The translations under genes were made by a program, and so were the position numbers. From NCBI GenBank assembly GCA_028284675.1, contig JANQRI010000005.1, forward strand, positions 31,997-95,996: a DNA stretch of 64,000 nucleotides. The letters run 5' to 3'. Below, in pieces: positions 18,012-46,516 of this stretch; positions within the stretch are counted from its first letter, which is position 1; the number at the start of each line of letters is the position of its first letter. A model generated the notes under the pieces. The model did not search any database and was not told the DNA's origin. It saw nothing but the letters and a program-made list of their open reading frames with translations. Origin of the DNA: Gammaproteobacteria bacterium (GTDB lineage: Bacteria > Pseudomonadota > Gammaproteobacteria > HTCC5015).

Positions 18012-18151
18012 TTGTTTGTTATAACCTTCATATCGACGTAAATTGTGATGCTGATTGCGGTGCATGATTGTTGGATAATATAAAGTGCGTCCTTCTAAAG
18101 CATATTAGAGTATGATTCAGTCCAAAGTATAAAGCTGTGTGGAGGTGCGGC

Positions 18152-26228: not shown

Positions 26229-26728
26229 AAGATTCACGCCGCATCAAGCGCATGAGCCGTGGGAAGGGCAAGAAAAAAGTGCCCAGCATGAACCTGGTAT
26301 CGCTGATGGACGTGTTTACCATCCTGGTATTCTTTTTGTTGGTGAACTCTTCCACGACTGAGGAGCTGAGTGATCCTAAGTCGATAGAATTACCTGAGTC
26401 CGTGTCAGAGAGTAAACCGGAGCAGACAATTGTATTGATGGTCACACCGACCAATATATTGATCAGAGGCGAAAGCATCGCGGTTGTTGAAGATATACTG
26501 GCGCAAAAGGAACTGGTAGTGAATTCAATCAGGGCCGCGCTGATAGAAGAAGCGGAGCGTAATCAAAGTCTGAGCACGCAAAGCCAGCAAAAACGGAAAG
26601 AAATCACAATCATGGGTGACCGGCAAATACCGTTTAAGTTACTCAAAAAGGTGATGGCCAGTTGTACTTCGGCCGGTTTTGAAAAAATTTCTTTGGCGGT
26701 GGTGCAGAAGGCATCGCAGGCAAGCTAA
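26225..26728 (+). CDS. ExbD/TolR-family protein, paralogue 2 (canonical TM Asp retained)
   Basis: 167-aa ORF with an ATGA overlap. The TM segment is MNLVSLMDVFTILVFFLLV, with Asp29 at codon 26309-26311. Confidence 0.85.
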   Translation: MKDSRRIKRMSRGKGKKKVPSMNLVSLMDVFTILVFFLLVNSSTTEELSDPKSIELPESVSESKPEQTIVLMVTPTNILIRGESIAVVEDILAQKELVVNSIRAALIEEAERNQSLSTQSQQKRKEITIMGDRQIPFKLLKKVMASCTSAGFEKISLAVVQKASQAS

Positions 26729-28172: not shown

Positions 28173-28556
28173 TCCGTATATTTTAATAACGGAAACACTC
28201 TGGAAATCTGTGTGTTTTATTAAAAAATATGCGTGCTTATACGCGCGTTGGTTGTGCTTGCAGGAATCTGCTGCTCCAAAATGATTGGCTTGCAAAGTTT
28301 AAAAACCGGTTTTTTCAATGCTTAAATTTAGTTTAATTCCGGTGCTTTCGGGCTCTTCCGCTAAGAGGTGCTATTTGTTAGACTAGCGGCGATGATAAGT
28401 ATTGTAAAAACAATAAGTTAGGGCTATTTTATTATAAGGATCATTTAATGCGAGGCATATCACGGTTGCAATCCCAGGGACGGCTAAAATAAGCCGGATA
28501 TCCTGAATCAGAATGCCTGATCAGGACAACTTTAAATTTGGTTTTAGTTTAATTTG

Positions 28557-31500: not shown

Positions 31501-34500
31501 CAACGGTGTTCTTTGACAGCAATCACACCTCGCCTGATTTTTCTATCGCGCTGGAAAGCGATGAAGACTATAACAATGCTGCGGTGCTGGCCGGTCCGGT
31601 GCAAACCGCAAATCTGGATGTCGAGTTTTTTCCGCCGAATGTGATACTCGGTGATCCGAATAATTTTGCCGATGTTGATCCCGGTCAACCCGGACTCGAA
31701 GGGGTGTTTACCTGGCTGGTCAGAATCACCAATGTCGGCACTAATACCGTTTCGGGTTATGTGTTTTCGAACATGGTGCCGCCGGGCTTTTTACCGTTTC
31801 GTGCCGGTTCATCTCCGGTCGCGGATGCCGGTCTGCTGACCGATCCGCTGATGGTCTGGAGCGGTTTACCTGATTTGTTGCCGGGCGGTTCGGTTGAGAT
31901 CACTGTTGCGATCGGATTGCCGCAAAACGCCGGTTGTAATGTGGGTAATCCGAATCAAACCACGGTTGCTTCCGGCTGTGTTGATGGCACCACGCTGTTT
32001 ACTGAAAACGGCCCGAATGTTTTGTTTCCGGTTATTGATCTGCAGCTTGAGCACCTGGATACCAGTTTCTGTGAATTATGCCGTGATGGTACGGTGGAGC
32101 TGGAAGTGCGTAACGAAGGTGCCTCTGATTTATACGATGTTGTTGTAACCGAAAATCTCGCCGGTTCCGGTTTGGAATATGTGTTGGGCAGCACCGAAGT
32201 ATTTGTCGAAGGCACTGCCGGATTCGTTGCGGTTGGTGATAATGCTGCAACCAATGCCACGCAAATTGTTTGGGATAGCACAAACATTGCGGCATTGGGA
32301 CAGCTGCTATCCGAGATTAACGGTATGCCGTCTGAAATGACGATTCGGTTCCGGGTCCGGTCCTCAGACCCGAACGCGGAAAACCTGGTTGCGGCAAACC
32401 GGAATATCAGTGCAAGCGGGGATTTTAATTTGTTTTGCGGTGATCCGGGTTTGCCATTGGTGGTCGATAATTTTCAGGTGCCCTTGCGTCAGCCGCAGCC
32501 GCAGGTGGAGAAACTTGGCCGAAACTTTTCGGCGCGGCAGACCGCAGCTGATTATGCCGACCCGGTATTTGGTGGTACAGATGACATCGTGATCTGGCAG
32601 GTTGACGTTGCGAACAGTGGTGTAACTTCATCCGCTGATTTGGAAGACTTGCTGGTTAACGATACGGTTGCACCAGGCCTTAACTTTACGCTGCAATTTG
32701 TTTGTCCGACTGAGGCTGATGCGGATGCCCGCGCGGTCGCACTGGAAACATTGGTGGCTCCGGCAGATGCATGTATACCGTATTTACCGGTGTTAGATGT
32801 CGATGACCCTTTCGGTAACCCGGGTAATGACCAGCCCGGTACGTTTATCGATGCTGCGGCCGGTAGCAGCGCTTTTGTTTATTACGTCGGTACGATTCAG
32901 AATCTTTGTACCAATGAAAATAATAATGTTGATATCCAGTGGGGTTGTGAGTCGAACAGTCCACCTGCGGGCGGTATCAATGCTGACGGTAGTGGCGGTG
33001 CATTATCGGCAGGCCTTGCCGCAGGCGATGATGATGACAGTGCATTTCTGAGTACGACCGTTGATCCGAATGGTGTGCTGGTCACACAAACCTTTACCGG
33101 AACCAATACGGCTCAACCTGTGGGCACGAAAGGTATTCTGACAATTACCGTCACCAATAACAGCGGTGGTACGGTACGTGATCTTATTTTAACCGATACC
33201 CTGCCGACCGATTACGAGTTGGATTTGACCTCATTGAATCCGCCAAATACGCCATTTGTTGTGAATCCTGCATTTGGTGTGTATCCAGGTATTGCCGATA
33301 CGTTTGCGGTTAATGCGACCAATCCGAATCAGCCGGTGTTTACATTTACCAGCTCAACCCAGGGGACGGTGAACCAGGCAAATTTATTGCGTAATGGTGA
33401 TGAGTTGGTTTTGACCGTGGGTGTAGTGCGGGTGCGGCCGTTTGATAATGTTAATGACCCTGAAGTCAGAACCGAGAACCCAGGTGACGGTACCGACCCG
33501 GATTATGCCCCACCGTTGCCGGCGGACGACGATAACACCGTCAGCCTGCAGTTCAGTAATACCTGTGGCACTGTATTCACTGATGCAGACAGTGTAAATC
33601 TGCCAAGCGTTATAGACGTTAATATCAACCCCGAGGATATCGATGTCGATATTAATCCGGCTGATCCTAACCTGCTGTTTATTCTCAGTGACCCGACCGC
33701 GACATTAAACTTCAATGTTGTCGTTAGCAATAACGGTGGTCATGACGCAAGCGACTATGATACTTACGTAACCGTGGGTAACGGTATCGATCCCGGAGTG
33801 ATACCGGCCGGGTGTGCACTGGCTGCCCCACCGGCTGAGCTTGGTTTTCCGCCAACAAATCCGGCAGGCATATTGCCGCCGGAATATAACCCGGCTGATT
33901 CACTGACGTTTCGTTGTGTAACCACCGACCCAATACCTCCAGGCGGTTCCGATACATTTGGCTTTACCATACAGCGCGCATTGCCGTTGGGTGTGTCCGG
34001 AGACTTAACATTTCGTGCCGATGTATTGGCACGCACTACATTAAGCGACGGGTCCGCGCCACCGGACCGGGGGGCGGCCGGTTATCCTTATTACTCCAAG
34101 GATAATATTCTTGCCCGTATTATTGGTTTTAATTTATTTAAAACATTTTTCGGAAACTGCAGTGAGGATAATCCCCCGCCGGTTGCGAACGGTAATGTGA
34201 TTATCGGTGAAGAATGTACGTTTGAAGTCGAGGCTGAATGGTTTGGTTTCGCAACACCCGGTTTTGGCAATATTGAAGTACGCAATCCGCGCATCTATGA
34301 GGGTGCGCTCACGAACAACCCGCCGCCGCCCGAGGGCAACCCCGGTGTTGATCCGCCAAACCTGCCGGATACTTTGGACGGGCAGGGGCTGGTGAGTATT
34401 GATACCACGGCCAGCAGCGCCGGTGTCAGTGTTGCGGTACAAAACCCGGCCGCACCCGCAGCGCTGGCCGAAACCGGATTGGCCTGGCGGTTAAATAATA

Positions 34501-37500
34501 TTGCCGCGGTTGGTAATACCGAAGAACGTTTTATCGCGCGGGTGCGTTGGCGAACATTGAATGACCCGGTGAATACTTCGGCCGTGCCAAACCTGCATGC
34601 GGCATTACAAAATGATGAAGTGAACGCGCGTTTTGATGTGTTTTTCTCAGGCACTGGTGCAACAGTGAGTTTTGATGAAACCACCGCAGGCTATCCACCG
34701 GCCGCATTGCGTATTGCCAGTGTCGTCGTAACCGAACCGAATGTCACGATTACCAAAGAAGTTTGTAACGAATCGATATCGATTGCTAACAACCCGGCTG
34801 ATTCGGGAGCAAACTGCCAGCCGTTTGTCGCATTGCCTGGTTTGGTTATGGGGGATTCGGATGATTTATTTATTTATCGTCTGACGGTGAATAATGAAGC
34901 GGCCGCATCCGGTGTTCCCAGAGCGCCGGCTTATGATGTTGCGATCAATGACAGTTTTGATGCGAGCGACCAGATCGCCCCGTTCGATTTCACCACTGAC
35001 GGGCTGGACAATGACGGCGACGGATTGGTTGATGCAGCGGATCTTGACGGCGAAGGCACGGTCGATGACCTGGTGCTGGTGAACGGCAACCCGGCGGATA
35101 TTACCATTGATTCGGCTAACAGCACGGCGTTGGCGCAGGTTGATCCCGGTGCCACGGTTGAGTTGTTTTATCGCGCGCGTCTGGACAATATGGTGACGCC
35201 GACCCAGCAGCTGATCAACACGGCAGACGGCACGTATGATAGTTTACCCGGCGCGTCCGGATCACAGTCGGCACCGCTAGGTGCCAGCGGTGCGTTAGGC
35301 GGCGCACGGCAATACAATATTCCACAGGCTCAGGCAACGATCGAAATCGATAACATCGTAGTTAATCCCGGTTCCAAGGAATTTATCGACAGTGCAAGGC
35401 GTGATGCAGGTCTGGTTGCGGGCGTCTGTGCATCACCCTGTGTGGATGAGAATGTCGTGATCGGTGAAGAGGTCATGGTGGAGCTGGAATTCACGCTGCC
35501 ATTGTCCGAATTGCGTCAATTTGCACTGGAGGACAATCTGCCGGCCGGTATTGAATGTATCGAGGCAATGGATATCGTGCTGCCGGTATTTAATCCGCCG
35601 GCAGTGGATCCGGGTTTTACCCCGGGCGGTGTATTTCCGGCGGCGACCTGTGATGCGAACCTGGTGCGTTGGGATTTAAGTCTGGCCGGCGATCAGACTC
35701 TGCAGGGCACCGGCGGTACGATGCAGTTCGATGTGCAGGCACGATTTATTGCCCGCGTACAAAATACTGTGGTCACAAACAACGGTGGCATTATCGCCAA
35801 TGGGGGTGCATCCACGAATGTGAATGTTTCCTATCGCGATGCCGGCAACACGCTGGTGATGATTCCGATCGACGAAGCACGATTGACCGTGCAAGAGCCG
35901 GTTGTTACGGTCACCAAAACAATGGACCCGGTCGCACCGGCGATAACAGTCGATGCACGTGATTTGATTAATGTGACGGTGCAGGTGCAAAACAACGGTA
36001 CCTCGCCGGCATACAATTTAAGATTGCAGGATGATTTAACCGCGCCCGGCACGAATCTGACTTATATCGCCGGCAGTCAGGGTGGTGCGAATATACCGGA
36101 TGTGATTGATTTAACGATACCAAATGCACCGGTATTTATTTTCAATAATCCATTGCCGCCCGCTGGTACCTTTACGTTTACGTTCCAGGTGCGTGCGGCG
36201 GATATCGTACAGCCTCTGGAAGAACTCAATAATACCGTGGCTGCCCGTTTTACCTCGTTACCCAATAACAATGTTGCGTTGAATGCGGGTGGTGCCATCG
36301 GTTTGGATGGTGCGCCCAACGGTATGCGGACCGGTGCGATCCCGCCGGCCGGAGATCCGGTGAATGACTATGAAGCACAAGGCGTGGATCAGGAAATCGT
36401 GCCGCCGTTGACGATTGTGAAAAACGATCTGACTCCCGGCGTACCGACGACAATCGGGGTCAGGAAAAATTTTGAAGTTGTACTGACCCTGCCGGAGGGT
36501 GTTAGCAACGGTGTGATTGTAAATGACAATCTGATGGCCGGTACAACCAGCTTTGTGCTGGAGAATAATGCTGCTTTCGATATCGTTTATACGTTTCAGG
36601 ATATCGTCAGCATCAACGGCGTGCCGGTTGCCGGTTTTGCAACGCCCGCAGATGCGGAAGCGGCGATGGCGGCATTTACCGCGGTTGATGCCGCCACCGG
36701 CCTGGTAATCTGGAACTTCGGCAATGTTGTGACTGCGATAGAGCAGGACCCGCTAACCACCGTGGTGAATCCACGCATTGTGATTAATTATTTTGCACGG
36801 GTCGGCAACAATGTGACGACTGTAGCCGGTGCAACTTTACAGAATGCAGCCGATTCGAATTATATTAATGGCGAAAACGGTGGTGTTGAAGTTATTAATG
36901 CGCCGTTGTTAGGGCCGTTTGTCGTGGTGGAGCCGGATTTGGTCGTGAATAAAACCGGTCCGGCGGTCATGAACCCGGCAGTACCGGCTTCATTTACGAT
37001 TACCGCGGACAATATCGGCACATCAACTGCGTGGGATGTCACAATCACCGATTTATTACCAAACCTGGATCCGGCTCCAGGTGGTATGTGCGATAACGCG
37101 CCGGTGATAACCGCGATTGATGTGGCCGGCCGTGCACTGGTGGAGAATGTTGATTATACGTTAACGTTTAATCCGGCACCGGCCTGTACGTTTTTAATTA
37201 CATTAATACCGACTGATGCTGCGCCGCCGGCTAACAATGCGCGTATCGATGCCGGTGAGACGCTGACGGTTGTTTACGATCATGTCCTCGACGCAGATAC
37301 GGCTTCGGCAACCAATCTGACCAATATTGCCGGCGCGACCCAGTGGTTTAGTTTGGACACCGACGGTGTGTTGGTGCCGCCGGAAATCAGAACCTATAAC
37401 CGGGTATTAACCAACGGTACGGTCGGCGTGCCTGATCATGAAGATGCGCATACGCTATTGGCTCAAGGGCCGGTATTGTCCATATCGAAGTTGGTTACAA

Positions 37501-40500
37501 ACTTAACCACAGGGCAGGGGCCTGCTGTCAATGTCAGTGCAAGCCCCGGGGATGATTTGCAATTTACATTGCAAGTGGATAACACCGGACCCGTTGCGGG
37601 GAATAATGTTCGGGTGTTTGATGACCCTGATTTATTGAATACACCGCCGGGTTATTACGAAAATTTTTCCACAGATCCGACCGAAAGGCTGCGGAATGTA
37701 ACAATCAGTGCGCCCGCTACGGATAACTCATTGGTCGGTGGTGGTGTTAACAACTCGGGTTTTCTGGATATTACGCTAAATACGCTTGATGCCTGCCCGG
37801 CACCGCCGGCCTGTCCGCCGGGCAGTTCTGCAACCGTTACCTTCGATATTACATTGGATCAGGAAATCCTGAACACCGCGGTGCTGGATAATCGCGCGTC
37901 GACCAGCGTTTTAGGTTTACTTCCAGTGAATTCGAATTTGGTGCAGGTGCAGGTTGGCCAGACGCCAGGTCTTATTGTTGAAAAAACCTCACAGGATTTG
38001 ACAGGTGATCCGAATGTGCTCGCGGTGGGTGATCAACTGCGCTATACGATTACCGCAAAAAATATTTCAAATGAAAACGCGGTTAATGTGTTATTACGCG
38101 ATCAGATTCCGGCCAATACCACTTATGTTGCAAACAGTACTTTCCTGAACGGTTTTGCGGTGGCGGATCCGGCCGCGAATACTTCGGCATTAACCGATGG
38201 TTTGCTGATTAATTCGGTTGATGTTGCGGTGCCCGGGTTTATGACCGCAAATCCGGATCCGGCAGTGAATAATGTTGCAACGATACAGTTTACTGTCACT
38301 GTAAACAGCAATCTTGTGAACGGCACGGTTATTTCAAACCAGGGTGTCGTAACCGGTCTGGGTGAAAACAACGGTCTGGGCTTTGTGCCGATTCTCAGCG
38401 ATGATCCGGCCACACCGGTTGCGAACGATCCGACCCAGGATATTGTCGGCAGCGGTCCGATTATCGATGCGCAGAAACAAGTCAGTATTGTTGCCGGCGG
38501 TGCCGACGGCACCGCGGATCCGGGTGATACCCTGCGTTATACCATCACGGTGTTTAACAGTGGCAACAGTCCAGCCACCGGAGTTCGGCTACGCGATGCG
38601 GTGCCGGCCAGTACGACGTATGCAGCGGATACTGTATCTCTAAACGGTCTTCCGGTTGCGCAACCTGACGGTGGTATTTCGCCGCTGATTGCGGGTATCG
38701 ATATCAGTTCCAGTGATTTGACGCCGCCGTTACCGGGTGCTGGTGCCGGAACTTTGTCTGCAGGTGGCGTTGCAACCATTGTTTTCGATGTGACGATCAA
38801 TGGCGGCACTGCAGCGGGTACGATAATCAGCAACCAGGGTTTCATTACCTCCAATCAGCTGCCGGAAGAACCAACCGATCAGGATGGTAATGATGAAAAC
38901 GGTGATCAGCCGACTGAAATTGTCGTTGGCGGCATCCCGGAACTGGAAATTACTAAAGAAGTTGTGATTGTCGGTGGCGGTACTGCGCAGGCAGGCGGGC
39001 AGCTGGAATATCTGATCCGGGTTGAGAATACCGGGCCGGTGGCTGCGGATAATATCGTTATAAGCGATACGATGCCGGCATTGACGACCTATGTTAACGG
39101 GTCCGGCCGGATCAACGGCGCAGTCGCGGGTGTCACGTTTGCCGGTAATGTGTTGACTGCTGATTACACTTCGGTGTTTGGTACTTTGGGGCCGGGTGAC
39201 TTTTTCCTGGTCACGTTCAGGGTGCAGATTGATGCATTGGGTAATCCGGGTCAGTCGATCGATAATACTGCGAACCTGGTTTGGAATGATGGGGCGCCAC
39301 CGAATTTTAATGCGGCTGATTCGGCCAGTGTCGATATCGGCGGGGCACCGGGTGTCGTCAACTTAAATGGCCTGATCTGGCATGATGCCAATCACAATGA
39401 TTTGTTTGATCCGCTGCTTGAACAGTCATTGCAGGGTTGGGAAGTGCAGGTGTATTTTAATAATGCCGCGCCTACCTCTGCGGATACGCCTATCGCAACT
39501 GCACCGCTGACCAGTGACAGCGGTTTGTTTAGTTTTAACGGTTTGTCACCGGGCGGGCCTTATACGGTTACATTTGCATTGCCCGCCAATAATGTTGCAC
39601 TGGGTGAGACGGTATCGACTGCCGGTACGGCCGGCTTGATGATTATTACCGATATATTTGGCAGTGCCGGTAATAATCTCCAGGATGAAAATCTCGCGGT
39701 TGAACCGACAGGCGTCGTTTACAATTCGGTCAGCCGCACCGGTGTCGGCGGTGCGCGAGTACGATTGGTACGCCCGGATGGTTCGCCGGTTCCCGCGGGT
39801 TGTTTTATAACTCCTGCACATTTGACCAATCAGCAAGGCAATAGCCCTGAGTTGCTTGGGCAGGTTACCCCGGGATTTCAAACCAGTGCCAGTGGACAGG
39901 AAGTTCCTGCGCAGGCCGGTTTCTATCGTTTCGACCTGAATTTTACAGATCCGGTTAATTGCCCAATTGGTCTGTCGGATTATCAAATCCAGGTTATAGT
40001 ACCGAACGAAGATGATTTTGTTGCCGGCGTATCGGGCGTAATACCGCCGGATACCGGTCCGGTCAATCTAAATACCTGTACCGCACCGGCCGGCCAATCG
40101 GTGGATACCATACCACCGCCGCCAGCAAGCACCTGTGATATCCAGGCACAGGGTTTGCCGCCTGATCCTGTCATTCCGCGCGGTAACGGCACGCGTTATT
40201 TTCTGGATCTGCAACTGGGTCAGACTTCGCAGAGCCTGTTTAATAATCATATTCCATTGGATCCTGTATTGGACGGTGTGGTCGCTATCGCGAAAACCAC
40301 ACCGTTAAAGAATGTTGTAAAAGGTCAGTTGGTTCCATATACGATTACATTGACCAATTCATTTACTTTCCCGCTGACCGGATTGTTTGTTCTCGATAAT
40401 TTTCCGGCAGGTTTTAAATATGTTGAAGGTTCTGCACAGATCAATGGTGTCAGCACTGAGCCGGTAGTTGACGGCCTGACGTTAACCTGGAGTGATCTGA

Positions 40501-41264
40501 CTTTGCAGGGGCTCGATACGATGACAATTAAGTTGTTATTAATTGTTGGTGCCGGTGTTGGCGAAGGCGAGTATACCAATACCGCACAAGCGTTTATTGC
40601 CGGCCTGGCCGGTTCTGTTTCCGGTGTCGCCAGTGCCACAGTACGCGTCGTACCGGACCCGACTTTTGATTGTTCAGATGTAGTCGGCAAGGTTTATGAT
40701 GATCGCAATGCGAATGGTTATCCGGATAGCGGGGAACCGGGTATCCCGGGTGCAAGAGTGGTTACCGCCAGGGGGCTGGTGATCACCGCTGATCAATTCG
40801 GTCGTTTTCATGTTGTTTGTGCGGCGGTACCGAACCCTGACCGTGGTTCTAATTTTATTATAAAGCTTGATGAACGGAGTCTGCCTTCCGGATATCGGGT
40901 AACCACTGAAAACCCGAGAGTCCAACGCCTGACCCGTGGTAAAGCCGCGAAGTTTAATTTCGGTGTCACCGTGCACCGAGTCGTGCGTGTTGATCTGACC
41001 GATGCGGCGTTTGAGCCGGGTGGTGCCGAGATACGTGAACACTGGCATTATGTGATCGACGATTTATTTAAGCAATTGCGCGAAGGTCCTTCAGTATTAA
41101 GGCTGTCATACCTGGGTGACAGAGAGTCCGGCAGTCTGGCTGCACGGCGGGTCAAAGCAACCAAGAAGCTGATCGCCAAACGCTGGAAGGCATTAAGTTG
41201 TTGCTACAACCTGCAGATTGAAACCGAAGTATTCTGGCGTACCGGCCGGCCGGGGGACAAGTGA
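28557..41264 (+). CDS. Giant (4,235-aa) secreted surface protein built of DUF11-type and prealbumin/SdrD-B-like beta-sandwich repeats; putative adhesin
   Basis: Uninterrupted 12.7-kb ORF (TTG 28554 / ATG 28557) with Sec signal peptide MPNKKITRQVLPLIRYCFFGFSLLALLTVHPIARA. It has many modules of the form L-x-[IV]-x-K...Y-x-[IV]-x-V-x-N-x-G...A-x-N-V-x-[IV]-x-D-x-[LI]-P, for example LIVEKTS...LRYTITAKNISNENAVNVLLRDQIP. Composition is acidic and rich in Thr, Gly, Asn, Val and Pro. Confidence 0.9.
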   Translation: MPNKKITRQVLPLIRYCFFGFSLLALLTVHPIARAVPLINSATQFTPADTARDPDSVPNNGDEYMDSAGVWNGLVEVTNTTGDSFQITLTNSAAGAPDPLVDDVAFDIGLTLNVPAGFRLPVSPFNVTTAATGGDPGAANCVAPGGGTITATQAGGAGTPITFNIPADTNLPARAPCNYSFQFGLTTNDSAPFVTGGNYQLDYDFSYNEIDDDAGSQQTTNAMQSVEVREGDIIIVKAAVPNPADPNGAYADGETAEWTVSVFGNGNGGSFAVLITDLLNINFDAATLQLTPPANPPGTPFPVPVGNNQYTINYLAPGQRVDITVQANVAVPANAASCPDLRNDVNAADRLGNASASFDSVVFDLQDPLLAYTPNDINIPFGGTDTVSFNVTNPGLGADGGTARNIVLDVSGLAGFTVSNVSALWAFDGTSQFTYLGLDGLPASGDEILVNGGSALLQFDVGMGTCGGPAASTLTWTPSYENLCGLSFTPPIETSTITVVNEPTLGITKAVAPGVTNFGQPAVYTIDITGANAGGLPTVAGVDNDWTVTDTLPPGVSAGVIPAVPTGTIITIGATVFTDVDTNIPVTAGDTIIWQGDRDDLVPTLPSITVNFTVDSGPFCPPDPPITIGNTATLDYPSCGINVADGAALLVNDSPIDGALQQFTISAGTPAPFETGRPDTDLVAVNEANEGERITFTATYQFPVGYPGIWSGSSLTTEMGTGAGGLAGSPLQLAFVDGNGDDLPTAGEVSGVTVQVTNPGGPDFPLTNLTIGAAAGQVTVNPGGTITIANLDFIGAVVGANMADTTFTIAYTVTAPEGNLDANLQPLDEVNIGAFTERLTFSVANNPASCGGGIDFTQGITGIQLERSDVGIGGNISTTNDAGACGPTTATIDITAPPAGGLNADNIRILLQGTDYVLPNMVGDYTFGGAGNLAALNPTISFAGSDVIIEVTPGDGGNLTGDSTISFPVNLNAAAAARDLPATVFFDSNHTSPDFSIALESDEDYNNAAVLAGPVQTANLDVEFFPPNVILGDPNNFADVDPGQPGLEGVFTWLVRITNVGTNTVSGYVFSNMVPPGFLPFRAGSSPVADAGLLTDPLMVWSGLPDLLPGGSVEITVAIGLPQNAGCNVGNPNQTTVASGCVDGTTLFTENGPNVLFPVIDLQLEHLDTSFCELCRDGTVELEVRNEGASDLYDVVVTENLAGSGLEYVLGSTEVFVEGTAGFVAVGDNAATNATQIVWDSTNIAALGQLLSEINGMPSEMTIRFRVRSSDPNAENLVAANRNISASGDFNLFCGDPGLPLVVDNFQVPLRQPQPQVEKLGRNFSARQTAADYADPVFGGTDDIVIWQVDVANSGVTSSADLEDLLVNDTVAPGLNFTLQFVCPTEADADARAVALETLVAPADACIPYLPVLDVDDPFGNPGNDQPGTFIDAAAGSSAFVYYVGTIQNLCTNENNNVDIQWGCESNSPPAGGINADGSGGALSAGLAAGDDDDSAFLSTTVDPNGVLVTQTFTGTNTAQPVGTKGILTITVTNNSGGTVRDLILTDTLPTDYELDLTSLNPPNTPFVVNPAFGVYPGIADTFAVNATNPNQPVFTFTSSTQGTVNQANLLRNGDELVLTVGVVRVRPFDNVNDPEVRTENPGDGTDPDYAPPLPADDDNTVSLQFSNTCGTVFTDADSVNLPSVIDVNINPEDIDVDINPADPNLLFILSDPTATLNFNVVVSNNGGHDASDYDTYVTVGNGIDPGVIPAGCALAAPPAELGFPPTNPAGILPPEYNPADSLTFRCVTTDPIPPGGSDTFGFTIQRALPLGVSGDLTFRADVLARTTLSDGSAPPDRGAAGYPYYSKDNILARIIGFNLFKTFFGNCSEDNPPPVANGNVIIGEECTFEVEAEWFGFATPGFGNIEVRNPRIYEGALTNNPPPPEGNPGVDPPNLPDTLDGQGLVSIDTTASSAGVSVAVQNPAAPAALAETGLAWRLNNIAAVGNTEERFIARVRWRTLNDPVNTSAVPNLHAALQNDEVNARFDVFFSGTGATVSFDETTAGYPPAALRIASVVVTEPNVTITKEVCNESISIANNPADSGANCQPFVALPGLVMGDSDDLFIYRLTVNNEAAASGVPRAPAYDVAINDSFDASDQIAPFDFTTDGLDNDGDGLVDAADLDGEGTVDDLVLVNGNPADITIDSANSTALAQVDPGATVELFYRARLDNMVTPTQQLINTADGTYDSLPGASGSQSAPLGASGALGGARQYNIPQAQATIEIDNIVVNPGSKEFIDSARRDAGLVAGVCASPCVDENVVIGEEVMVELEFTLPLSELRQFALEDNLPAGIECIEAMDIVLPVFNPPAVDPGFTPGGVFPAATCDANLVRWDLSLAGDQTLQGTGGTMQFDVQARFIARVQNTVVTNNGGIIANGGASTNVNVSYRDAGNTLVMIPIDEARLTVQEPVVTVTKTMDPVAPAITVDARDLINVTVQVQNNGTSPAYNLRLQDDLTAPGTNLTYIAGSQGGANIPDVIDLTIPNAPVFIFNNPLPPAGTFTFTFQVRAADIVQPLEELNNTVAARFTSLPNNNVALNAGGAIGLDGAPNGMRTGAIPPAGDPVNDYEAQGVDQEIVPPLTIVKNDLTPGVPTTIGVRKNFEVVLTLPEGVSNGVIVNDNLMAGTTSFVLENNAAFDIVYTFQDIVSINGVPVAGFATPADAEAAMAAFTAVDAATGLVIWNFGNVVTAIEQDPLTTVVNPRIVINYFARVGNNVTTVAGATLQNAADSNYINGENGGVEVINAPLLGPFVVVEPDLVVNKTGPAVMNPAVPASFTITADNIGTSTAWDVTITDLLPNLDPAPGGMCDNAPVITAIDVAGRALVENVDYTLTFNPAPACTFLITLIPTDAAPPANNARIDAGETLTVVYDHVLDADTASATNLTNIAGATQWFSLDTDGVLVPPEIRTYNRVLTNGTVGVPDHEDAHTLLAQGPVLSISKLVTNLTTGQGPAVNVSASPGDDLQFTLQVDNTGPVAGNNVRVFDDPDLLNTPPGYYENFSTDPTERLRNVTISAPATDNSLVGGGVNNSGFLDITLNTLDACPAPPACPPGSSATVTFDITLDQEILNTAVLDNRASTSVLGLLPVNSNLVQVQVGQTPGLIVEKTSQDLTGDPNVLAVGDQLRYTITAKNISNENAVNVLLRDQIPANTTYVANSTFLNGFAVADPAANTSALTDGLLINSVDVAVPGFMTANPDPAVNNVATIQFTVTVNSNLVNGTVISNQGVVTGLGENNGLGFVPILSDDPATPVANDPTQDIVGSGPIIDAQKQVSIVAGGADGTADPGDTLRYTITVFNSGNSPATGVRLRDAVPASTTYAADTVSLNGLPVAQPDGGISPLIAGIDISSSDLTPPLPGAGAGTLSAGGVATIVFDVTINGGTAAGTIISNQGFITSNQLPEEPTDQDGNDENGDQPTEIVVGGIPELEITKEVVIVGGGTAQAGGQLEYLIRVENTGPVAADNIVISDTMPALTTYVNGSGRINGAVAGVTFAGNVLTADYTSVFGTLGPGDFFLVTFRVQIDALGNPGQSIDNTANLVWNDGAPPNFNAADSASVDIGGAPGVVNLNGLIWHDANHNDLFDPLLEQSLQGWEVQVYFNNAAPTSADTPIATAPLTSDSGLFSFNGLSPGGPYTVTFALPANNVALGETVSTAGTAGLMIITDIFGSAGNNLQDENLAVEPTGVVYNSVSRTGVGGARVRLVRPDGSPVPAGCFITPAHLTNQQGNSPELLGQVTPGFQTSASGQEVPAQAGFYRFDLNFTDPVNCPIGLSDYQIQVIVPNEDDFVAGVSGVIPPDTGPVNLNTCTAPAGQSVDTIPPPPASTCDIQAQGLPPDPVIPRGNGTRYFLDLQLGQTSQSLFNNHIPLDPVLDGVVAIAKTTPLKNVVKGQLVPYTITLTNSFTFPLTGLFVLDNFPAGFKYVEGSAQINGVSTEPVVDGLTLTWSDLTLQGLDTMTIKLLLIVGAGVGEGEYTNTAQAFIAGLAGSVSGVASATVRVVPDPTFDCSDVVGKVYDDRNANGYPDSGEPGIPGARVVTARGLVITADQFGRFHVVCAAVPNPDRGSNFIIKLDERSLPSGYRVTTENPRVQRLTRGKAAKFNFGVTVHRVVRVDLTDAAFEPGGAEIREHWHYVIDDLFKQLREGPSVLRLSYLGDRESGSLAARRVKATKKLIAKRWKALSCCYNLQIETEVFWRTGRPGDK
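37971..39350 (+). repeat. Three consecutive ~160-aa canonical DUF11 repeats (protein-level, divergent at DNA level)
   Basis: The repeats start at LIVEKTSQDL (37971), IIDAQKQVS (about 38460) and ELEITKEVV (about 38940). Each carries the GDxLxYTI-x-V-x-N-x-G...V-x-[LI]-x-D-x-[IVM]P-x-x-T-x-Y pattern. Confidence 0.65.
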
Positions 41265-44200
41265 TGCGCTTCCGGTACGCGATTTTGTATTATTTGCTCG
41301 GTGGTTTGCCGTCAGTCGCGGTTTTTGCGCAGGATGATGTAACGGATAAAAACTGTCCGCAAGGTATTTGTCAGGTGATACCCGATTGCGAGGCGGAGGG
41401 CCTAAGTGAAGAAGAATGCGAGTCATATCAGCGTTCCCGTGCACGCGGGCGTATGCAGGACCAAAATAAAATTATTGAACCGGGTTTTTCGTTACGGAAA
41501 ACCAAATTGCCACAGAACAGTGAAATGCTGTTACCGGACGAGGCATTTACACTGTGGATGCAGGACGAAGAGCAGTTCCGGCCGCAGCAGGATGATGAAG
41601 TGGTTTTTGAAAAACGGATTGTGCAGGATGCAGAGACTATCAAGCTCGATGGGCTTGTTGATCCGGTTCGCTTTAGTTCCGGGCGTGACGATATTCCGGA
41701 GGAGTTTATTGGCCAGCTTCGTGATGTACTGAATGATATGCAGGGGCGTGCCAATGTCCGCTTGCATTTTATCGGCCATACCGATAATCAGGCTTTAAGT
41801 GGCGCATCAAAAGCGCGCTACGGTGACAACATCGGTTTGTCTGCAGCCCGCAGCCGGATGGTCGCCGAGTTTTTTCAACGTGCGCTGGGCTTGCCGCCTG
41901 AGGCGGTTTCATTTGAAGGTCGTGGTGCTGATGAACCGTTAGGGTCGAATGATACCGCAAGTGGCAGAGCGTTAAACCGGCGTGTCGAAGTGGAAGTCTG
42001 GTACGATGAAATTACCGAGAGAGAGGTTGAAGAGCAGGCGATCGGTGGGCCGGAAATGACCCGAATAAAAGTCTGCCGCGTGATGCAGCGTTGTATTTAC
42101 AAACGCAAAACAGGCAACTACAAAAAAATTCAGGTCATTAACGCGGTACCGCCGTTACGTTACGAAGGTACCCAGGTTGATATTGACAGTGCATATTTTT
42201 CACGTTTGCGTAAAGCGCTGGCTGATGTTGAGGATATGCCGAATGTTGCGATCCGGGTGGTCGGGCATACCGATAACCAGCCGCTGACCGGCGCTGTAGA
42301 ACGCATTTACACCGACCGAATTAATTTGTCGAAAGCATTGGCGAACCGGGTTGCACGGGTTATTCAGGAAACATTGAAACTCTCGAATACCGACGTAAGT
42401 GCTTTTGGAAAAGGCGAAACTGCACCGGTTGCACCGAATACCACTGCCAGCGGCCGGGCATTGAACCGCAGGGTTGAGGTGGAAATCTGGCATGATGATC
42501 CACGCGGCACTACCGTAAGCAAGCCGCTCGCCTGTCCGGGTGCGGCAGAGGCTGAGATGGTTACGCAAAAATATGAAGATGAAAAAATCATCGTGCCGTT
42601 CAAAAACGGTCAGCCGGCGTATCCGAATGGGTTTGTGCCGCGCGTGCAACGTATTCTGACCGAGTTGCGCGATAAAACCAATGTGCGCATCAATTTCTCC
42701 GGCCATACGACCAATGAGCGCCTGACCCGGCGCGCGGCCATGGTTTACGGTGATCATATGGGCTTGTCTGAGGCGCGTGGCCGACGGGTGATGCGCTATA
42801 CACAGGAGCAGCTGCAACTGACCGACGAACAGGTTCAGCATGAAGGCCGCGGTTTTATCGAGCCATTAAATAAACCGGATGATTCACCGTTTGCGCGTAA
42901 AACATTCAGTCGCCTCGGCCAGGATAATGATCCAATCGTGAACCCGGCCGATGCGCGGGTTGAACTGGAATTTTTATTCGATGAACTGGCCAAGGTTGAA
43001 GAGGACCCGAATCTGGAAATCGTGCCGGTCATGCAGGAAGAGCAGCCGGTCAGCCCGTTTTCATTGCAGCCGATCAGAGTCACCGTGGATGGGGTTACGC
43101 TGGATGATTCACGCCGGCATTCAGCCGATGTGCAGCGTTGTACCGATCTGGAGCTGGATAAGGTCAATATACAGCTTGCATACGATAATTTGCGTCAGTC
43201 ACCGCGACTGAATGTGCAGGCCGTGCCGGCAACCGTAACATTTTGGGATGATCCGGATACCGAGCCGATGGAAAACAAAGTGCGGTTCAAAGCCTATTCA
43301 AATTACCGCGCTTATATCGCGCGTGCTGAAGTGCGTGTTTATGATGCAGAGCAGTCTCTGCAGTCCGAGCCGCTGGAAGTGCTGCCGCTAAATGAAGAGC
43401 TTTATGCGGAATGGTGGTGGATACCCGAGATCCGGCCGTTCGAAGGACCGGTCAAAGAGCTGCGTTACGTGCTGCGTGTATACGACGATAAAGGCCGTTT
43501 CGATCAAACCGCCGCGAAACCACTGTGGGTGGTTAATCAGTTGAAATCGCCGGAATTTTTGCAGGAAATGGATACTGTTGCGGAACAACGTGTGGTGTAT
43601 GGTGAAAATCACCTGGCGAAGCGCGGTATTCCGGTCAATGGCGGCACGATCACCGTGAACGGTGAGCAGGTTGCTGATGGTTATACGGTATGGATTATGA
43701 ATCAGGCGGTGCCGCTGTCTGAGGACAACGCATTTGTTACTGAGCAGATTATTCCCGATGGCTTGCATTCAGTTGAAGTTGCCGTGTTGGATGGTGAAGG
43801 GAGCGGTAGTTTGTATCTGCGTGATCTCAGGTTAAAACGCAGTGACTGGTTTTATGTCGGTATCGCGGATCTGACGCTGGGTGTTGATGATACCGAAGGG
43901 CCGGCCGCGTTGGTGACCACCGATGATACTCATTATGAGAGTGATTTTTGGGCGGATGGCCGTATTGCGTTTTACACCAAAGGCAAAACCAAAGGTGATT
44001 TTACGATCACCGCAAGTGCGGACAGTCGCGAAGAGCCGTTAGAAGACTTGTTCAGCAATTTTGACCAGAAAGACCCTGATGCGGTTTTTCGTCGGCTTGA
44101 TCCTGATTACTTTTACCCGACTTACGGTGATGACAGCACCACAATAGAAGATGCACCGACCAGTGGCCGGTTTTTCGTGAAAGCTGAAAAAAATGAATCG

Positions 44201-46516
44201 TATGCAATGTGGGGTAATTTTGAAACCAAGCTTTACGATACTGATCTGGCGCAAATAGACCGGGTGCTTTATGGCGCGAATCTGCATTATGAAAGTTTAA
44301 GTACCACTGAGTATGGTGAGAACCGCACTGAGACGGATTTATTTATTGCCGAGCCGGGCACTTTGCTGGCCCGGGAAGAATTCCGCGGTACCGGTGGTTC
44401 GCTATATTTTCTGCAACGCCGTGATATTACGCAAGGCTCTGAACGCCTGCGTATAGAAGTGCGTGATAAAGATTCAGATATCGTTTTACAGGTTACCAAT
44501 CTGGTATATGCACAGGATTATGATATTGACTACATCCAGGGCAGGGTATTATTAAATGAGCCGCTGGCCTCTACCGCTGATGATGGCCTGTTGGTGCAAA
44601 ATGGTTCATTGAGCGGTAACCCGGTTTATCTGGTGGCTCGATATGAATACACGCCCGGTTTTGAGGAGTTGGATGATGTCGCAACCGGTGGCCGGGTCGC
44701 ACACTGGTTTGGTAACAAGTTTAAAGTCGGTGCAAGCTTTTCGAATCAGGAACAACTCGGCGAAGTGCAGGATTTGGCCGGTATTGATCTAACTATCCGC
44801 AAGACGCCGGCGACTTATCTGAAACTGGAGTCGGCGAAAACCGAAGGGCCGGCATTTGGACAGACGTTTTCAAATGACGGCGGTTTCCAGTTTAACAACC
44901 TTAATTTTACCGCTGACCCGGAAACCGATGCGGCTGCGCAACGCCTGGAAGCAGCTGCACAACTAAGCGACTTGTTTGGCAATACACCGGGTAAAGTGAC
45001 GTTGTATCTGCAGGAACGCGAGGCCGGGTTTGCGGCGCCGGGTCAGATTACCAATACCGACGTGTCGCAGGCCGGAGCAAGTGTGAATATGCCGGTCGGC
45101 AGCCGCTGGAATATTTTTGCAAAACTGGATGAACGTGATCAGGAGCAGGGTTTGTCAACATCGGCGATTGAGGTTGATACCCGCTATAAGCTGACCGATC
45201 AATGGCGTTTAAGCTGGGGTGTGCGTGCTGATGAGCGTGAAGATGACTCGGTTGTTGTGCCCGGGACCCAGACCACCGGCAAGCGCACTGATCTGTCATT
45301 CGAAGCGGCCTATGACAGCCTCGGCGACTGGTCGGTTTACGGATTTGTGCAGGGCACTGCCGATACCACCGAGAGTCGCGAAGACAACAGCCGGGCAGGC
45401 GTCGGTTCGGCATATCAGCTGTCGGACCGTTTAAAGCTCGATGCTGAAGTCTCCGGCGGTGACGGCGGTTCCGGCGGGCGCCTGGGAATCGATTATCTGG
45501 TCACCGACAGGACTAATCTATATCTTGCATATGCGCTGGAAAACGAACGTTCCGATACCGGCCTGCGCGCCCGTAATGGCCGTGCGACCGCCGGTTTCCG
45601 CACGCGCTATTCAGATGCATTAAGTGTATACGGTGAAGAGCGACTGCTGTTCGGTGAGCAACCTTCAGGGTTGACCCACGCTTACGGTATTGATATTGCA
45701 CCGGCGGATAAATGGACTCTGGGCATTTCTGTTGAGGCCGGCACGTTGGAGGATAATAATTCCGGCGCTGAAACCGAGCGTACCGCAGTGGGTTTGTCGG
45801 CCGGATTTGGTGGCGACAGAGTCCGGTATGCAACAGCGATTGAGCTACGTGAAGACATTACCGATGTTTCAGAGCGTAATACCTATTTGCTAAAAAATAC
45901 TTTATCGGTACAGCTCAGCCCCAGCTGGCGCACGATCGGCAAACTGAATATATCCGAGAGCGAAAGTTCCGCCGGTGAATTTTTCGACGGCGATTTCACC
46001 GAGTTTATTCTCGGTTATGCATACCGCCCGGTATATCATGACCGCCTGAACATGTTGTTCAAATACACATTTTTTGAAAACTTGCCGTCGCCTGAGCAGG
46101 AAACCACGAACAATGGCGCACGCGCGGATTTTATTCAGCGCAGCAATATTGTATCAGTGGACGCGACCTATGATCTGACCAAGCGCTGGACTTTGGGTAC
46201 CAAGTTGGCACGGCGTATCGGTGAGGTTTCTTTGGACCGAATTGATCCGCAGTTTTTTGAAAGTAATGCGAACCTGATTGTATTGCGGGCCGACTGGCAT
46301 ATTGTCCGCACCTGGGATTTGTTGGTCGAGGCGCGCGCGTTGGAGGTTGAAGAGGCCCAGGATGCCCGCGATGGGTTTTTGGTCGCCGGTTACCGGCATT
46401 TGGGCAACAATTTAAAAATCGGTGTCGGTTATAATTTTACCGATTTCTCTGATGACCTGACCGATCTGGATTTTGACAGCCAGGGTTTGTTTATCAATAT
46501 TGTCGGGAAATTGTAA
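41261..46516 (+). CDS. 1,751-aa outer-membrane protein: three N-terminal OmpA-like peptidoglycan-binding domains plus very large C-terminal predicted beta-barrel
   Basis: ATGA overlap with the giant gene, and signal peptide MRFRYAILYYLLGGLPSVAVFA. The OmpA-like domains lie at about 41645-42004, 42148-42493 and 42598-42980 (HFIGHTDNQ...LSAARS...SGRALNRRVEVEVW). From about 43841 onward the sequence has alternating-hydrophobicity strands with Gly, Asp and Asn turns up to the C-terminus. Confidence 0.85.
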   Translation: MMRFRYAILYYLLGGLPSVAVFAQDDVTDKNCPQGICQVIPDCEAEGLSEEECESYQRSRARGRMQDQNKIIEPGFSLRKTKLPQNSEMLLPDEAFTLWMQDEEQFRPQQDDEVVFEKRIVQDAETIKLDGLVDPVRFSSGRDDIPEEFIGQLRDVLNDMQGRANVRLHFIGHTDNQALSGASKARYGDNIGLSAARSRMVAEFFQRALGLPPEAVSFEGRGADEPLGSNDTASGRALNRRVEVEVWYDEITEREVEEQAIGGPEMTRIKVCRVMQRCIYKRKTGNYKKIQVINAVPPLRYEGTQVDIDSAYFSRLRKALADVEDMPNVAIRVVGHTDNQPLTGAVERIYTDRINLSKALANRVARVIQETLKLSNTDVSAFGKGETAPVAPNTTASGRALNRRVEVEIWHDDPRGTTVSKPLACPGAAEAEMVTQKYEDEKIIVPFKNGQPAYPNGFVPRVQRILTELRDKTNVRINFSGHTTNERLTRRAAMVYGDHMGLSEARGRRVMRYTQEQLQLTDEQVQHEGRGFIEPLNKPDDSPFARKTFSRLGQDNDPIVNPADARVELEFLFDELAKVEEDPNLEIVPVMQEEQPVSPFSLQPIRVTVDGVTLDDSRRHSADVQRCTDLELDKVNIQLAYDNLRQSPRLNVQAVPATVTFWDDPDTEPMENKVRFKAYSNYRAYIARAEVRVYDAEQSLQSEPLEVLPLNEELYAEWWWIPEIRPFEGPVKELRYVLRVYDDKGRFDQTAAKPLWVVNQLKSPEFLQEMDTVAEQRVVYGENHLAKRGIPVNGGTITVNGEQVADGYTVWIMNQAVPLSEDNAFVTEQIIPDGLHSVEVAVLDGEGSGSLYLRDLRLKRSDWFYVGIADLTLGVDDTEGPAALVTTDDTHYESDFWADGRIAFYTKGKTKGDFTITASADSREEPLEDLFSNFDQKDPDAVFRRLDPDYFYPTYGDDSTTIEDAPTSGRFFVKAEKNESYAMWGNFETKLYDTDLAQIDRVLYGANLHYESLSTTEYGENRTETDLFIAEPGTLLAREEFRGTGGSLYFLQRRDITQGSERLRIEVRDKDSDIVLQVTNLVYAQDYDIDYIQGRVLLNEPLASTADDGLLVQNGSLSGNPVYLVARYEYTPGFEELDDVATGGRVAHWFGNKFKVGASFSNQEQLGEVQDLAGIDLTIRKTPATYLKLESAKTEGPAFGQTFSNDGGFQFNNLNFTADPETDAAAQRLEAAAQLSDLFGNTPGKVTLYLQEREAGFAAPGQITNTDVSQAGASVNMPVGSRWNIFAKLDERDQEQGLSTSAIEVDTRYKLTDQWRLSWGVRADEREDDSVVVPGTQTTGKRTDLSFEAAYDSLGDWSVYGFVQGTADTTESREDNSRAGVGSAYQLSDRLKLDAEVSGGDGGSGGRLGIDYLVTDRTNLYLAYALENERSDTGLRARNGRATAGFRTRYSDALSVYGEERLLFGEQPSGLTHAYGIDIAPADKWTLGISVEAGTLEDNNSGAETERTAVGLSAGFGGDRVRYATAIELREDITDVSERNTYLLKNTLSVQLSPSWRTIGKLNISESESSAGEFFDGDFTEFILGYAYRPVYHDRLNMLFKYTFFENLPSPEQETTNNGARADFIQRSNIVSVDATYDLTKRWTLGTKLARRIGEVSLDRIDPQFFESNANLIVLRADWHIVRTWDLLVEARALEVEEAQDARDGFLVAGYRHLGNNLKIGVGYNFTDFSDDLTDLDFDSQGLFINIVGKL

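Follow-up and report, generated by a model that had tools for sequence, protein, structure and literature searches.

Gene organization of the locus

The DNA analyzed here, referred to as the window, is a stretch of 64,000 nucleotides from a gammaproteobacterium of the HTCC5015 lineage (assembly GCA_028284675.1, contig JANQRI010000005.1, positions 31,997 to 95,996 of the forward strand; coordinates below are those of the window). It carries in this order, all on the forward strand, a nine-gene accessory module with a proton-channel motor, the gene of a giant fibrillar adhesin and the gene of a 1751-residue protein, hereafter the barrel protein, which is the main subject of this work. The barrel protein is composed of a signal peptide (read as …VAVFA/QDD), three OmpA-like domains, two β-sandwich domains and an 891-residue C-terminal region. 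Its gene and the parts of its product are the following:

41261..46516 (+): 1751-residue protein with three OmpA-like domains, sandwich region and barrel; GTG start; open reading frame (ORF), Pfam and AlphaFold2
41486..41614 (+): conserved N-terminal motif, residues 76–118, with invariant E88 and W99; homologue alignment
41615..42010 (+): OmpA-like domain 1, canonical; Pfam, PDB and homologue alignment
42161..42496 (+): OmpA-like domain 2, without the Arg of LSxxRA in the window; Pfam, PDB and alignment
42596..43030 (+): OmpA-like domain 3, degenerate family-wide; alignment and Pfam
43166..43840 (+): two β-sandwich domains, residues 636–860; AlphaFold2, and conserved together with the barrel throughout the superfamily
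43841..46513 (+): predicted C-terminal outer-membrane β-barrel domain, residues 861–1751, ~36–42 strands; AlphaFold2, Foldseek, strand statistics and phmmer
44027..44614 (+): conserved insert inside the barrel, residues 923–1118; conservation profile

The C-terminal region is predicted to form one very large outer-membrane β-barrel

A preliminary description of this DNA had noted an amphipathic strand pattern over about 890 residues from position 43841, where the translation begins SDWFYVGIADLTLG, and had read it as one large barrel of the translocase class. The pattern is statistically well marked: in the predicted strands, the hydropathy alternation reaches z = 4.1 and the bias towards one hydrophobic face z = 5.3, both against within-strand shuffles, and aromatic residues are enriched at the strand ends (0.18 versus 0.10). 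We modelled the region with AlphaFold2 in two runs. The first one, on residues 580–1751 with 42 sequences, gave a predicted local distance difference test score (pLDDT) of 64 and a predicted template modelling score (pTM) of 0.47; in this model, strands set in after the sandwiches at SDWFYVG (residue 862), an insert of low model quality comes next, and then 33 long antiparallel strands in uninterrupted succession which, when read by strand parity, are connected by turns of 2–10 residues on the periplasmic side and by loops of 2–30 residues on the opposite side. The second run, on residues 861–1751 with 113 sequences, reached a mean pLDDT of 75.8 and a pTM of 0.72. As this pTM extends over 891 residues, the model indicates a single globally defined fold, and the structure-prediction check proposed in the preliminary description, which set one large pore against several small barrels or a soluble solenoid, came out in favor of the former. 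The DSSP strings contain the 33 consecutive long strands plus 3–8 more around the insert, and we estimate the strand number of the modelled barrel at 36–42.

Among the matches listed by Foldseek against the PDB in two runs, there are outer-membrane barrels only, and with the better model these include the largest known: SprA (36 strands), SlpA (30 strands), and LptD and MtrB (26 strands). The template modelling (TM) scores are at most 0.36 for any target and at most 0.25 when normalised on the query, so that they support the fold class and do not single out a specific relative. The generic outer-membrane-barrel family OMP_b-brl of Pfam weakly matches 14 of 25 members and, above its cutoff, the distant member P0248. 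Otherwise, Pfam yields only weak generic barrel models for the barrel and sandwich region, and the search of NCBIfam with barrel, sandwich region and adhesin tail gave no match at E ≤ 0.1. The assignment of the 891-residue region to the outer-membrane β-barrel fold class is supported by these models and profiles.

The conserved insert carries the motifs DPDY.YPT.GDDS, RGTGGSLYF, LRIEVRDKDS and DYDIDYIQGR. Conservation within the barrel protein is highest in this insert, followed by the C-terminal strands, and is lower in the OmpA-like domains. The insert profile has no significant match in the PDB (best E 0.063, a T-cell receptor) and none in Pfam.

The protein ends on Leu, which the preliminary description had set against the usual aromatic signature for the β-barrel assembly machinery (BAM). 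The Leu is real and unremarkable, and we rejected it as an atypical BAM signal: it is uninformative because the close homologues end on F, L, M or I, and 124 of the 150 superfamily representatives introduced below on F, Y or W.

The N-terminal half carries three OmpA-like domains in inverted order

The residue-level statements on the barrel protein rest on an alignment of the window protein with 24 full-length homologues. Such homologues are numerous (49–72% identity) and are annotated only as ‘OmpA family’ or ‘MotB’. The Pfam family OmpA (PF00691) matches three stretches with 86–91 bits against a cutoff of 27.2, which places all three in this family, and the C-terminal domains of PomB, TssL and OprF are among their sequence relatives in the PDB. 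Searches of the barrel protein in NCBIfam and against PDB sequences returned nothing beyond these OmpA-like domains. The protein is not a classical OmpA: the membrane domain PF01389 (OmpA_membrane) is unmatched, the domain order is reversed, and the barrel region has 891 residues. The inverted order, with the OmpA-like domains ahead of the barrel, had been singled out in the preliminary description; it is present, but not unique, as connectors of the SlpA/OmpM type are precedents. Inverse autotransporters provide a further one.

The ligand-binding residues of OmpA/Pal domains are the Asp of G-H-T-D and the Arg of LSxxRA. Domain 1 has GHTD…LSAARSR…NRRVEVE. Domain 2 had been taken as equally canonical, but has Leu in place of the Arg, reading LSKALANR in the window and its nearest relatives as opposed to LSKARARR in most homologues; from the alignment, the clade of the window appears to have lost the canonical ligand-binding Arg in this domain. 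Domain 3 is degenerate, as described earlier, and it is so across the family (GYT.N, no NRRVEV, canonical Asp missing), with an insertion of ~21 residues in the clade of the window. Of the three domains of the window protein, only domain 1 therefore has both the canonical Asp and the canonical Arg. The β-rich linker of ~280 residues that had been noted between domain 3 and the barrel is modelled as the two β-sandwich domains (residues ~636–860, pLDDT 70–90).

Ahead of domain 1 lies the conserved N-terminal motif (…NSE..LPDE.F.LW.QDE..F…), a candidate docking peptide for a TPR (tetratricopeptide repeat) or TonB-like partner. The four-cysteine motif reported earlier behind the signal peptide is present (C32–C53), but in the alignment it is confined to the nearest relatives of the window; for this reason we rejected it as a family-defining feature and regard it as lineage-specific. 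Other cysteines are invariant, namely C272 and C278 (KVCR….C; 42074–42094) and C425 (ACPG; 42533–42535), and one in a QRCTD motif near position 43100 is near-invariant. These cysteines are likely to form periplasmic interdomain disulfides.

A giant fibrillar adhesin is the obligate partner of the barrel protein

The gene upstream of the barrel gene encodes the giant protein of the locus, with a tail that is important for what follows:

28554..41264 (+): giant fibrillar adhesin, 4236 residues; ORF, Pfam and NCBIfam
40482..41261 (+): conserved adhesin tail, last 260 residues; SdrD-B-type domain plus ~95 residues with no recognisable relative

The adhesin is composed of a signal peptide and of CLIPPER/DUF11, DUF7619, DUF7927, SdrD-B and isopeptide-type domains. 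DUF11 matches six stretches (169 bits), so the protein belongs to the CLIPPER/DUF11 fibrillar adhesins, whose name, family description and adhesin role are given in PMC12617251. Its tail, the portion whose occurrence follows that of the barrel, is 53–77% identical across phyla, while the total length of the adhesins varies from ~1.8 to 4.2 thousand residues. In a PDB profile search, the SdrD B domain is the sole match to the tail, and no OmpA-like structure appears among the matches even at E ≤ 10; a direct hhalign comparison of the tail with the OmpA region is weak (E 0.027, probability 1.8%). No C-terminal sorting domain of type IX secretion (T9SS) was detected on the adhesin.

The preliminary description had made the large-pore reading depend on the giant neighbour being a constant companion, and this expectation was confirmed. 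In 82 of 83 loci, which span at least six phyla, the barrel gene is directly preceded by a homologue of the last 700 residues of the adhesin, and the remaining locus ends at a contig edge. In the window, the adhesin stop overlaps the start of the barrel gene by 4 nt; the same overlap is seen in 27 of the 82 loci and a 1-nt overlap in 10 (37 of 82 together), and the two genes are probably translationally coupled. The adhesin is an obligate partner of the barrel protein. Relatives are present in at least 594 genomes in a scan of one genome per species, and the carriers include Gamma- and Betaproteobacteria, Desulfuromonadales, Thermodesulfobacteriota, Nitrospirota, Gemmatimonadota and Acidobacteriota.

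In Microbulbifer sediminum (NZ_JAJSAP010000001.1, ~337–377 kb, loci L010/L011), two adhesin-barrel pairs stand in tandem, 16,075 nt apart and 97% identical over 7.7 kb, with one barrel gene per adhesin.

Adhesin and barrel are naturally fused in part of a large superfamily

An exhaustive phmmer search with the barrel domain alone retrieved 3433 representatives at 50% clustering, of which 1018 have E ≤ 1e-30. In all cases the domain sits at the C-terminus, and it is mostly matched over its full length; judged by these matches, it delimits a superfamily that comprises over 1000 clusters at 50% identity. We probed the best 150 representatives with the window's own segments. The whole barrel region is covered by a single blastp alignment in 132 of them, the insert is detected in 144 and the sandwich region in 124. 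OmpA-like domains are absent from 104 representatives and present in one copy in 31, in two copies in nine and in three copies in six; the triple OmpA arrangement emphasised in the preliminary description is the trait of a subfamily.

In 40 of the 150 representatives, the adhesin tail lies upstream of the barrel within the same polypeptide, and Pfam finds stalk domains of the CLIPPER, SdrD_B and SpaA type on the long fused proteins. In two of these, P0126 and P0137, a linker of ~30 residues comes after the tail (…ETE.(F/Y)WRRG.P), and behind it stand the conserved N-terminal motif, kept directly after this linker, and OmpA-like domain 1. No internal signal peptide was found at these two junctions, which were the ones inspected, and the fused ORFs translate correctly from the contig DNA. 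P0126 and P0137 are genuine fusions, and a frameshift artefact is excluded. OmpA-less fusions, among them P0123 and P0172, have an architecture distinct from that of P0126 and P0137.

The fusions constrain the topology. Because the tail is only ~30 residues away from the periplasmic OmpA-like domains, it should be periplasmic too, and if the fibre is surface-exposed, the chain then crosses the outer membrane N-terminal to the tail. The barrel is the only candidate conduit encoded for the adhesin chain. With the passenger first and the barrel second, the fusions are laid out like an autotransporter, except that folded periplasmic domains intervene and that the barrel is much larger.

Four loci (L165, L166, L169 and L170) contain OmpA-less pairs or fusions with no ExbB, ExbD or TPR genes within flanks of up to 10 kb. 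Since these units stand without motor genes, the barrel alone may serve adhesin display, which suggests that the barrel suffices for this purpose and that wall tethering and the motor are add-ons.

The accessory module corresponds to the Agl/Glt core complex

Upstream of the adhesin gene, the window carries the nine genes of the accessory module, which had escaped the preliminary description, as had the autotransporter-like logic of the fusions:

18137..18679 (+): u180, secreted 180-residue protein (signal peptide, coiled coil, β-rich C-terminus); first module gene
18689..20698 (+): TPR protein, 669 residues; GltC counterpart by position and size; TPR matches and conserved order
20695..23901 (+): TPR protein, 1068 residues (YbgF/CpoB-like repeats, BamD-like region); GltD counterpart
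23855..24550 (+): TPR protein, 231 residues, lipobox-like LVGC; GltE counterpart
24547..24825 (+): s92, small secreted protein of 92 residues; ‘additional gene’ of the published core complex; conserved position
25036..25689 (+): MotA/TolQ/ExbB-family proton channel, 217 residues (AglR counterpart); Pfam MotA_ExbB, E 9e-24
25689..26228 (+): ExbD/TolR-family protein 1, 179 residues (AglQ counterpart); Pfam ExbD, E 1.7e-14
26225..26728 (+): ExbD/TolR-family protein 2, 167 residues (AglS counterpart); Pfam ExbD, E 1.4e-18
26775..28172 (+): GltG-like TonB-type transducer, 465 residues; NCBIfam NF033768, 67.9 bits (cutoff 40)

In content, order and sizes, the nine genes are those of Gura_3070–3077 and GM21_0438–0444, including an ‘additional gene’ that the published table skips. 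Luciano et al. 2011 (Table S3, PMC3169522) assign the proteins of 626–648 residues at the position of the 669-residue TPR protein to MXAN_2541/GltC, Gura_3076 (1108 residues) and GM21_0439 (1090 residues) to MXAN_4870/GltD, and Gura_3075 (240 residues) to MXAN_4869; the locus tags Gura_3074 and GM21_0441 are passed over in the table, while the text mentions an additional gene. Gene for gene, the accessory module matches the Agl/Glt ‘core complex’. The same authors reported this complex in some Gamma- and Betaproteobacteria and in Geobacter, where its function was stated to be unknown.

The 231-residue TPR protein matches the NCBIfam model gliding_GltE with E 2e-12, below the cutoff and beside many other TPR models. 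The GltG-like protein consists of a cytoplasmic coiled coil, a transmembrane helix, a poly-Pro tract and a C-terminal domain of the AgmX/PglI type, to which the NF033768 match above its cutoff belongs; it stays below the cutoffs of GltG (50.9 bits) and GltJ (33.1 bits) and matches TonB_C weakly. As the equivalog cutoffs of GltG and GltE are missed, the two proteins are relatives and not equivalogs. A run of ten prolines after the transmembrane helix of the GltG-like protein (~27440–27470) resembles the Pro-rich spacer of TonB/TolA-type proteins. The u180 protein belongs to no family of Pfam or NCBIfam. The s92 gene follows the GltE-like gene, which is the place of gltF in the G1 cluster of M. 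xanthus, and may encode a GltF analogue.

In 21 loci, which come from Desulfuromonadales, Nitrospirota, Gemmatimonadota, Acidobacteriota and others, these nine genes follow immediately downstream of the barrel gene with their internal order preserved. A u180 homologue occupies the same place in these 21 barrel-centred loci and in those ExbB-centred loci that extend to this point. When viewed from the ExbB-family gene, whose product is 64–76% identical across loci, all 24 of the 24 metagenomic loci of at least 9 kb keep the module as far as the contig reaches, and adhesin and barrel are present in 14 of the 14 informative ones, 11 times after the TonB-like gene and three times before the 180-residue gene. 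In locus L164, a fused form with three OmpA-like domains follows ExbD, ExbD and GltG-like genes. Comparison of this locus, which has the motor, with the four OmpA-less loci, which do not, makes the module seem tied to the OmpA-bearing branch; OmpA-like domains and motor module may be a coupled acquisition, although the sample is small. Some published core complexes carry much shorter GltG homologues of 321–334 residues (Maqu_1595, HCH_02634 and Sde_2954), and Marinobacter has two copies (Table S3, PMC3169522). Not every core complex need pair with an adhesin and a barrel.

Downstream of the barrel gene, a 100-residue ORF on the minus strand (46631–46933) converges on it. A 221-residue ORF at 47135–47800 has no homologue in any related locus, and the system therefore appears to end at 46516. 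Further on, ten tightly packed co-directional ORFs of 307–577 residues (50989–63097) are unrelated to the barrel system. Promoter and terminator scans at the operon ends gave no excess over the shuffled expectation.

Relation to known envelope systems

The preliminary description had likened the barrel to ushers, LptD and translocase pores. The size class stands, but by profile the protein is no member of the usher, LptD or TpsB families. Usher profiles of Pfam and NCBIfam are unmatched, FimD being a generic Foldseek match (TM ≤ 0.30), and no chaperone or pilin genes were detected near the barrel gene. LptD/OstA profiles are likewise unmatched, with LptD as the top Foldseek match by E-value (TM 0.15–0.17). 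Among the profiles of TonB-dependent receptors, TonB_dep_Rec has no match and Plug an E of 0.18; no search was aimed at a TonB box. Autotransporter, POTRA/TpsB and inverse-autotransporter profiles found nothing, except for a sporadic YadA_anchor in one of 25 members. SprA profiles are unmatched as well, and no T9SS genes were detected in the window. The absence of these defining profiles places the barrel protein outside the usher, LptD, TonB-receptor, type V and SprA families.

The module invites comparison with the Agl-Glt machine, with whose core (aglRQS plus gltC, D, E and G) it shares content, order and sizes. The grouping of a motor and a TPR scaffold with one or several outer-membrane barrels and a surface adhesin is shared with Myxococcus. 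Myxococcus has the small barrels GltA, GltB and GltH plus GltK, whereas one giant barrel with OmpA-like domains is found here; its adhesin CglB is a VWA lipoprotein and not a CLIPPER fibre of several thousand residues, and GltI, GltJ and the cytoplasmic regulators are not seen here. A search of NCBIfam with the barrel gave no match to GltA, GltB or GltH at E ≤ 0.1, the presence of such models in that database being unconfirmed.

Type V systems of the Va and Vb classes share with the present one a surface passenger at the N-terminus and an outer-membrane barrel at the C-terminus, in one chain or in adjacent genes, as well as an adhesin with an N-terminal signal peptide and stand-alone units devoid of other secretion genes. 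Type V barrels have 12 or 16 strands. The barrel described here is about three times larger, the tail, zero to three OmpA-like domains and two sandwiches stand between passenger and barrel, the passengers are immunoglobulin (Ig)-like stalks of the isopeptide type in place of β-helices, and one subfamily has a dedicated motor driven by the proton-motive force. By its layout, the barrel protein works like a type V system, of which it is not a member.

SprA/Sov together with GldLM/PorLM likewise combines a very large single-chain barrel, adhesins and a proton-driven motor in the inner membrane, and SprA, with 36 strands, is still called the largest known barrel. SprA chains are retrieved by Foldseek with probability 1.0 (TM 0.17–0.20), but there is no sequence relationship, the phyla differ, and the motor is here of the ExbB/ExbD type with a TonB-like transducer. 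Connectors of the SlpA/OmpM type, such as Deinococcus SlpA, have the same ‘inverted’ order of an N-terminal wall-binding module and a very large C-terminal barrel; where the barrel protein has OmpA-like and sandwich domains, SlpA has a trimeric coiled coil and an SLH domain, and it has neither a partner adhesin nor a motor module and shows no sequence similarity to the barrel protein. By analogy, the barrel protein recalls SprA plus GldLM in its size and in the coupling to energy, and SlpA/OmpM in the combination of a wall module with a huge barrel.

Single barrels beyond the solved sizes have been predicted before on the basis of sequence and contact maps: Solan et al. 2021 (PMC8346858) describe a superfamily of large outer-membrane β-barrels with 38 and 40 strands (families 002 and 003), and our estimate of 36–42 falls into the same range. 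In the text of that paper that could be searched, these families are linked to no adhesin, OmpA or motor, and the proteins are not identified there. Fibrobacter succinogenes, listed as a core-complex carrier (Luciano Table S3, PMC3169522), has in FSU_2396–2403 an OmpA-family protein, TPR proteins, ExbB, ExbD, ExbD and TonB in the same order, and FSU_2396 and FSU_2397 were reported in one outer-membrane-vesicle complex with a 180-kDa adhesin. The adhesin is a fibro-slime protein encoded elsewhere. FSU_2396 has only ~56 kDa and may best be taken as a parallel to the barrel protein.

We found no literature description of the barrel family or of its link to CLIPPER adhesins, nor of a link between a Glt core complex and a giant adhesin/barrel pair, and none on the flanking genes Gura_3079/3080, Maqu_1805/1806 and Sde_2952/2953; the coverage of this search is incomplete and an earlier description of the family is possible.

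Proposed working and alternative explanations

The barrel protein is probably, though with room for doubt, an outer-membrane conduit and anchor for the giant adhesin, tethered to the cell wall and coupled to a motor. The adhesin would be exported across the inner membrane by Sec. Its 260-residue tail would remain periplasmic and dock to the part made of sandwich and OmpA-like domains, while the stalk would run outward and, as we infer, occupy the barrel lumen. OmpA-like domain 1, and perhaps the others, would fix the device to peptidoglycan. The ExbB/ExbD channel, acting through the GltG-like transducer and the TPR scaffold, could convey proton-motive energy to the barrel or the adhesin, to be used in export, in gating or in putting the fibre under tension; for gating, the conserved insert could serve as a plug or clamp. 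Passenger and barrel, two chains in the window and one chain in other lineages, would then represent an autotransporter topology that has been split.

Several points weigh against this display function. The closure of the modelled barrel, its strand number and the occupancy of its lumen are supported indirectly, and the conserved insert could fill the lumen completely. That the adhesin is exposed at the surface is an assumption drawn from its domain types. The proposal gives no account of how a passenger that precedes a periplasmic tail would be threaded outward. Peptidoglycan binding by domains 2 and 3 of the window protein is doubtful. Co-location with the motor shows a functional link and leaves its nature unspecified. 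Finally, the stand-alone class comprises four loci with flanks of up to 10 kb, and motor genes could lie elsewhere in these genomes.

Part of these observations would also fit a passive envelope staple, that is a connector between outer membrane and peptidoglycan of the SlpA/OmpM/OmpA kind with a docking site, the adhesin crossing by another route. Three OmpA-like domains are present, Deinococcus SlpA, with its N-terminal wall binding and plugged 30-strand barrel, has the top query-normalised TM score (0.23–0.25), and the insert could be such a plug. We nevertheless consider a staple unlikely: the 104 representatives devoid of OmpA keep barrel, sandwich and adhesin linkage, which implies that wall tethering is not the core function; the passenger-barrel fusion of 40 representatives is a hallmark of self-export devices; stand-alone pairs have no other secretion genes in their flanks; and conservation peaks in the insert and the barrel strands instead of the OmpA-like domains. 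A division of the 891 residues into several smaller barrels, or their folding as a soluble β-solenoid, is hardly credible. Chains with several barrels exist elsewhere, and the first AlphaFold2 run, with its pTM of 0.47, included a low-confidence stretch; the deeper alignment raised the pTM to 0.72 across the whole region, the 33 consecutive strands have short connections and leave no long inter-barrel linkers, the region aligns as one block, always C-terminal, in the 132 representatives mentioned above, and solenoids are absent among the listed Foldseek matches.

The other two alternatives concern the motor. An energised, TonB-dependent channel that takes up a large substrate caught by the giant protein could be imagined from the ExbB, the two ExbD and the TonB-type protein adjoining the barrel system, from the homologous Fibrobacter cluster FSU_2400–2403, which has been proposed to power cellodextrin import, and from the TonB-dependent receptors among the listed Foldseek matches. 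Such an importer is nonetheless most improbable, as the receptor profile is unmatched and the sole Plug match, located in the sandwich region, is insignificant; moreover, the TonB-type protein has the C-terminal domain of a gliding transducer (GltG/AgmX type) and not that of a nutrient-uptake TonB, OmpA-less members have no motor genes nearby, and receptors show no counterpart of the fusion to a fibrillar adhesin. A surface-motility machine, in which the adhesin would be carried along the cell by the module in the manner of Myxococcus Agl-Glt, is suggested by the gene-for-gene identity of the module with the Agl/Glt core and by the fact that the Myxococcus machine is completed by the adhesin CglB and the outer-membrane barrels GltA, GltB and GltH. 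We regard it as very unlikely, since three domains of the peptidoglycan-binding type would immobilise the outer-membrane part, the core genes are insufficient for motility and their carriers are not known gliders (PMC3169522), and GltA, GltB, GltH, GltI, GltJ, GltK and the cytoplasmic regulators are not seen in the module.

Adhesin display can be extended into a broader proposal, which we put forward tentatively and which may well prove too far-reaching: the barrel superfamily would provide the translocon by which giant Ig-like fibrillar adhesins are exported through the outer membrane and anchored there, in a hitherto unrecognised pathway that resembles an autotransporter, fused or split, and has a barrel at least as large as SprA and of sufficient width for a folded stalk; its branch with OmpA-like domains would represent the missing outer-membrane and surface output of the Agl/Glt core in its ancestral form, and the myxobacterial gliding machine would have evolved from an adhesin display device coupled to the proton-motive force.

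Significance for giant adhesins and the Agl/Glt core

The barrel family is real, widespread and uncharacterised. Surveys based on structures have probably missed it, since proteins of more than 1,280 residues are left out of AlphaFoldDB. In size, the barrel may match or surpass that of SprA, the largest single-chain barrel with a solved structure, and this poses questions about assembly by BAM. A 2025 survey of CLIPPER/SdrD-type adhesins discusses sorting and anchoring domains and does not mention secretion; the present system offers a proposed route by which such adhesins of several thousand residues would cross and stay in the Gram-negative outer membrane. The Agl/Glt core complex outside gliders gains a concrete candidate output, the giant adhesin with its barrel. 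Cultured carriers are found in Microbulbifer, Alcanivorax, Thiohalomonas, Alkalilimnicola and Geotalea, and the natural series of forms, with zero to three OmpA-like domains, fused or split, and with or without the motor, provides a comparison for the effects of wall tethering and of proton-motive energy.

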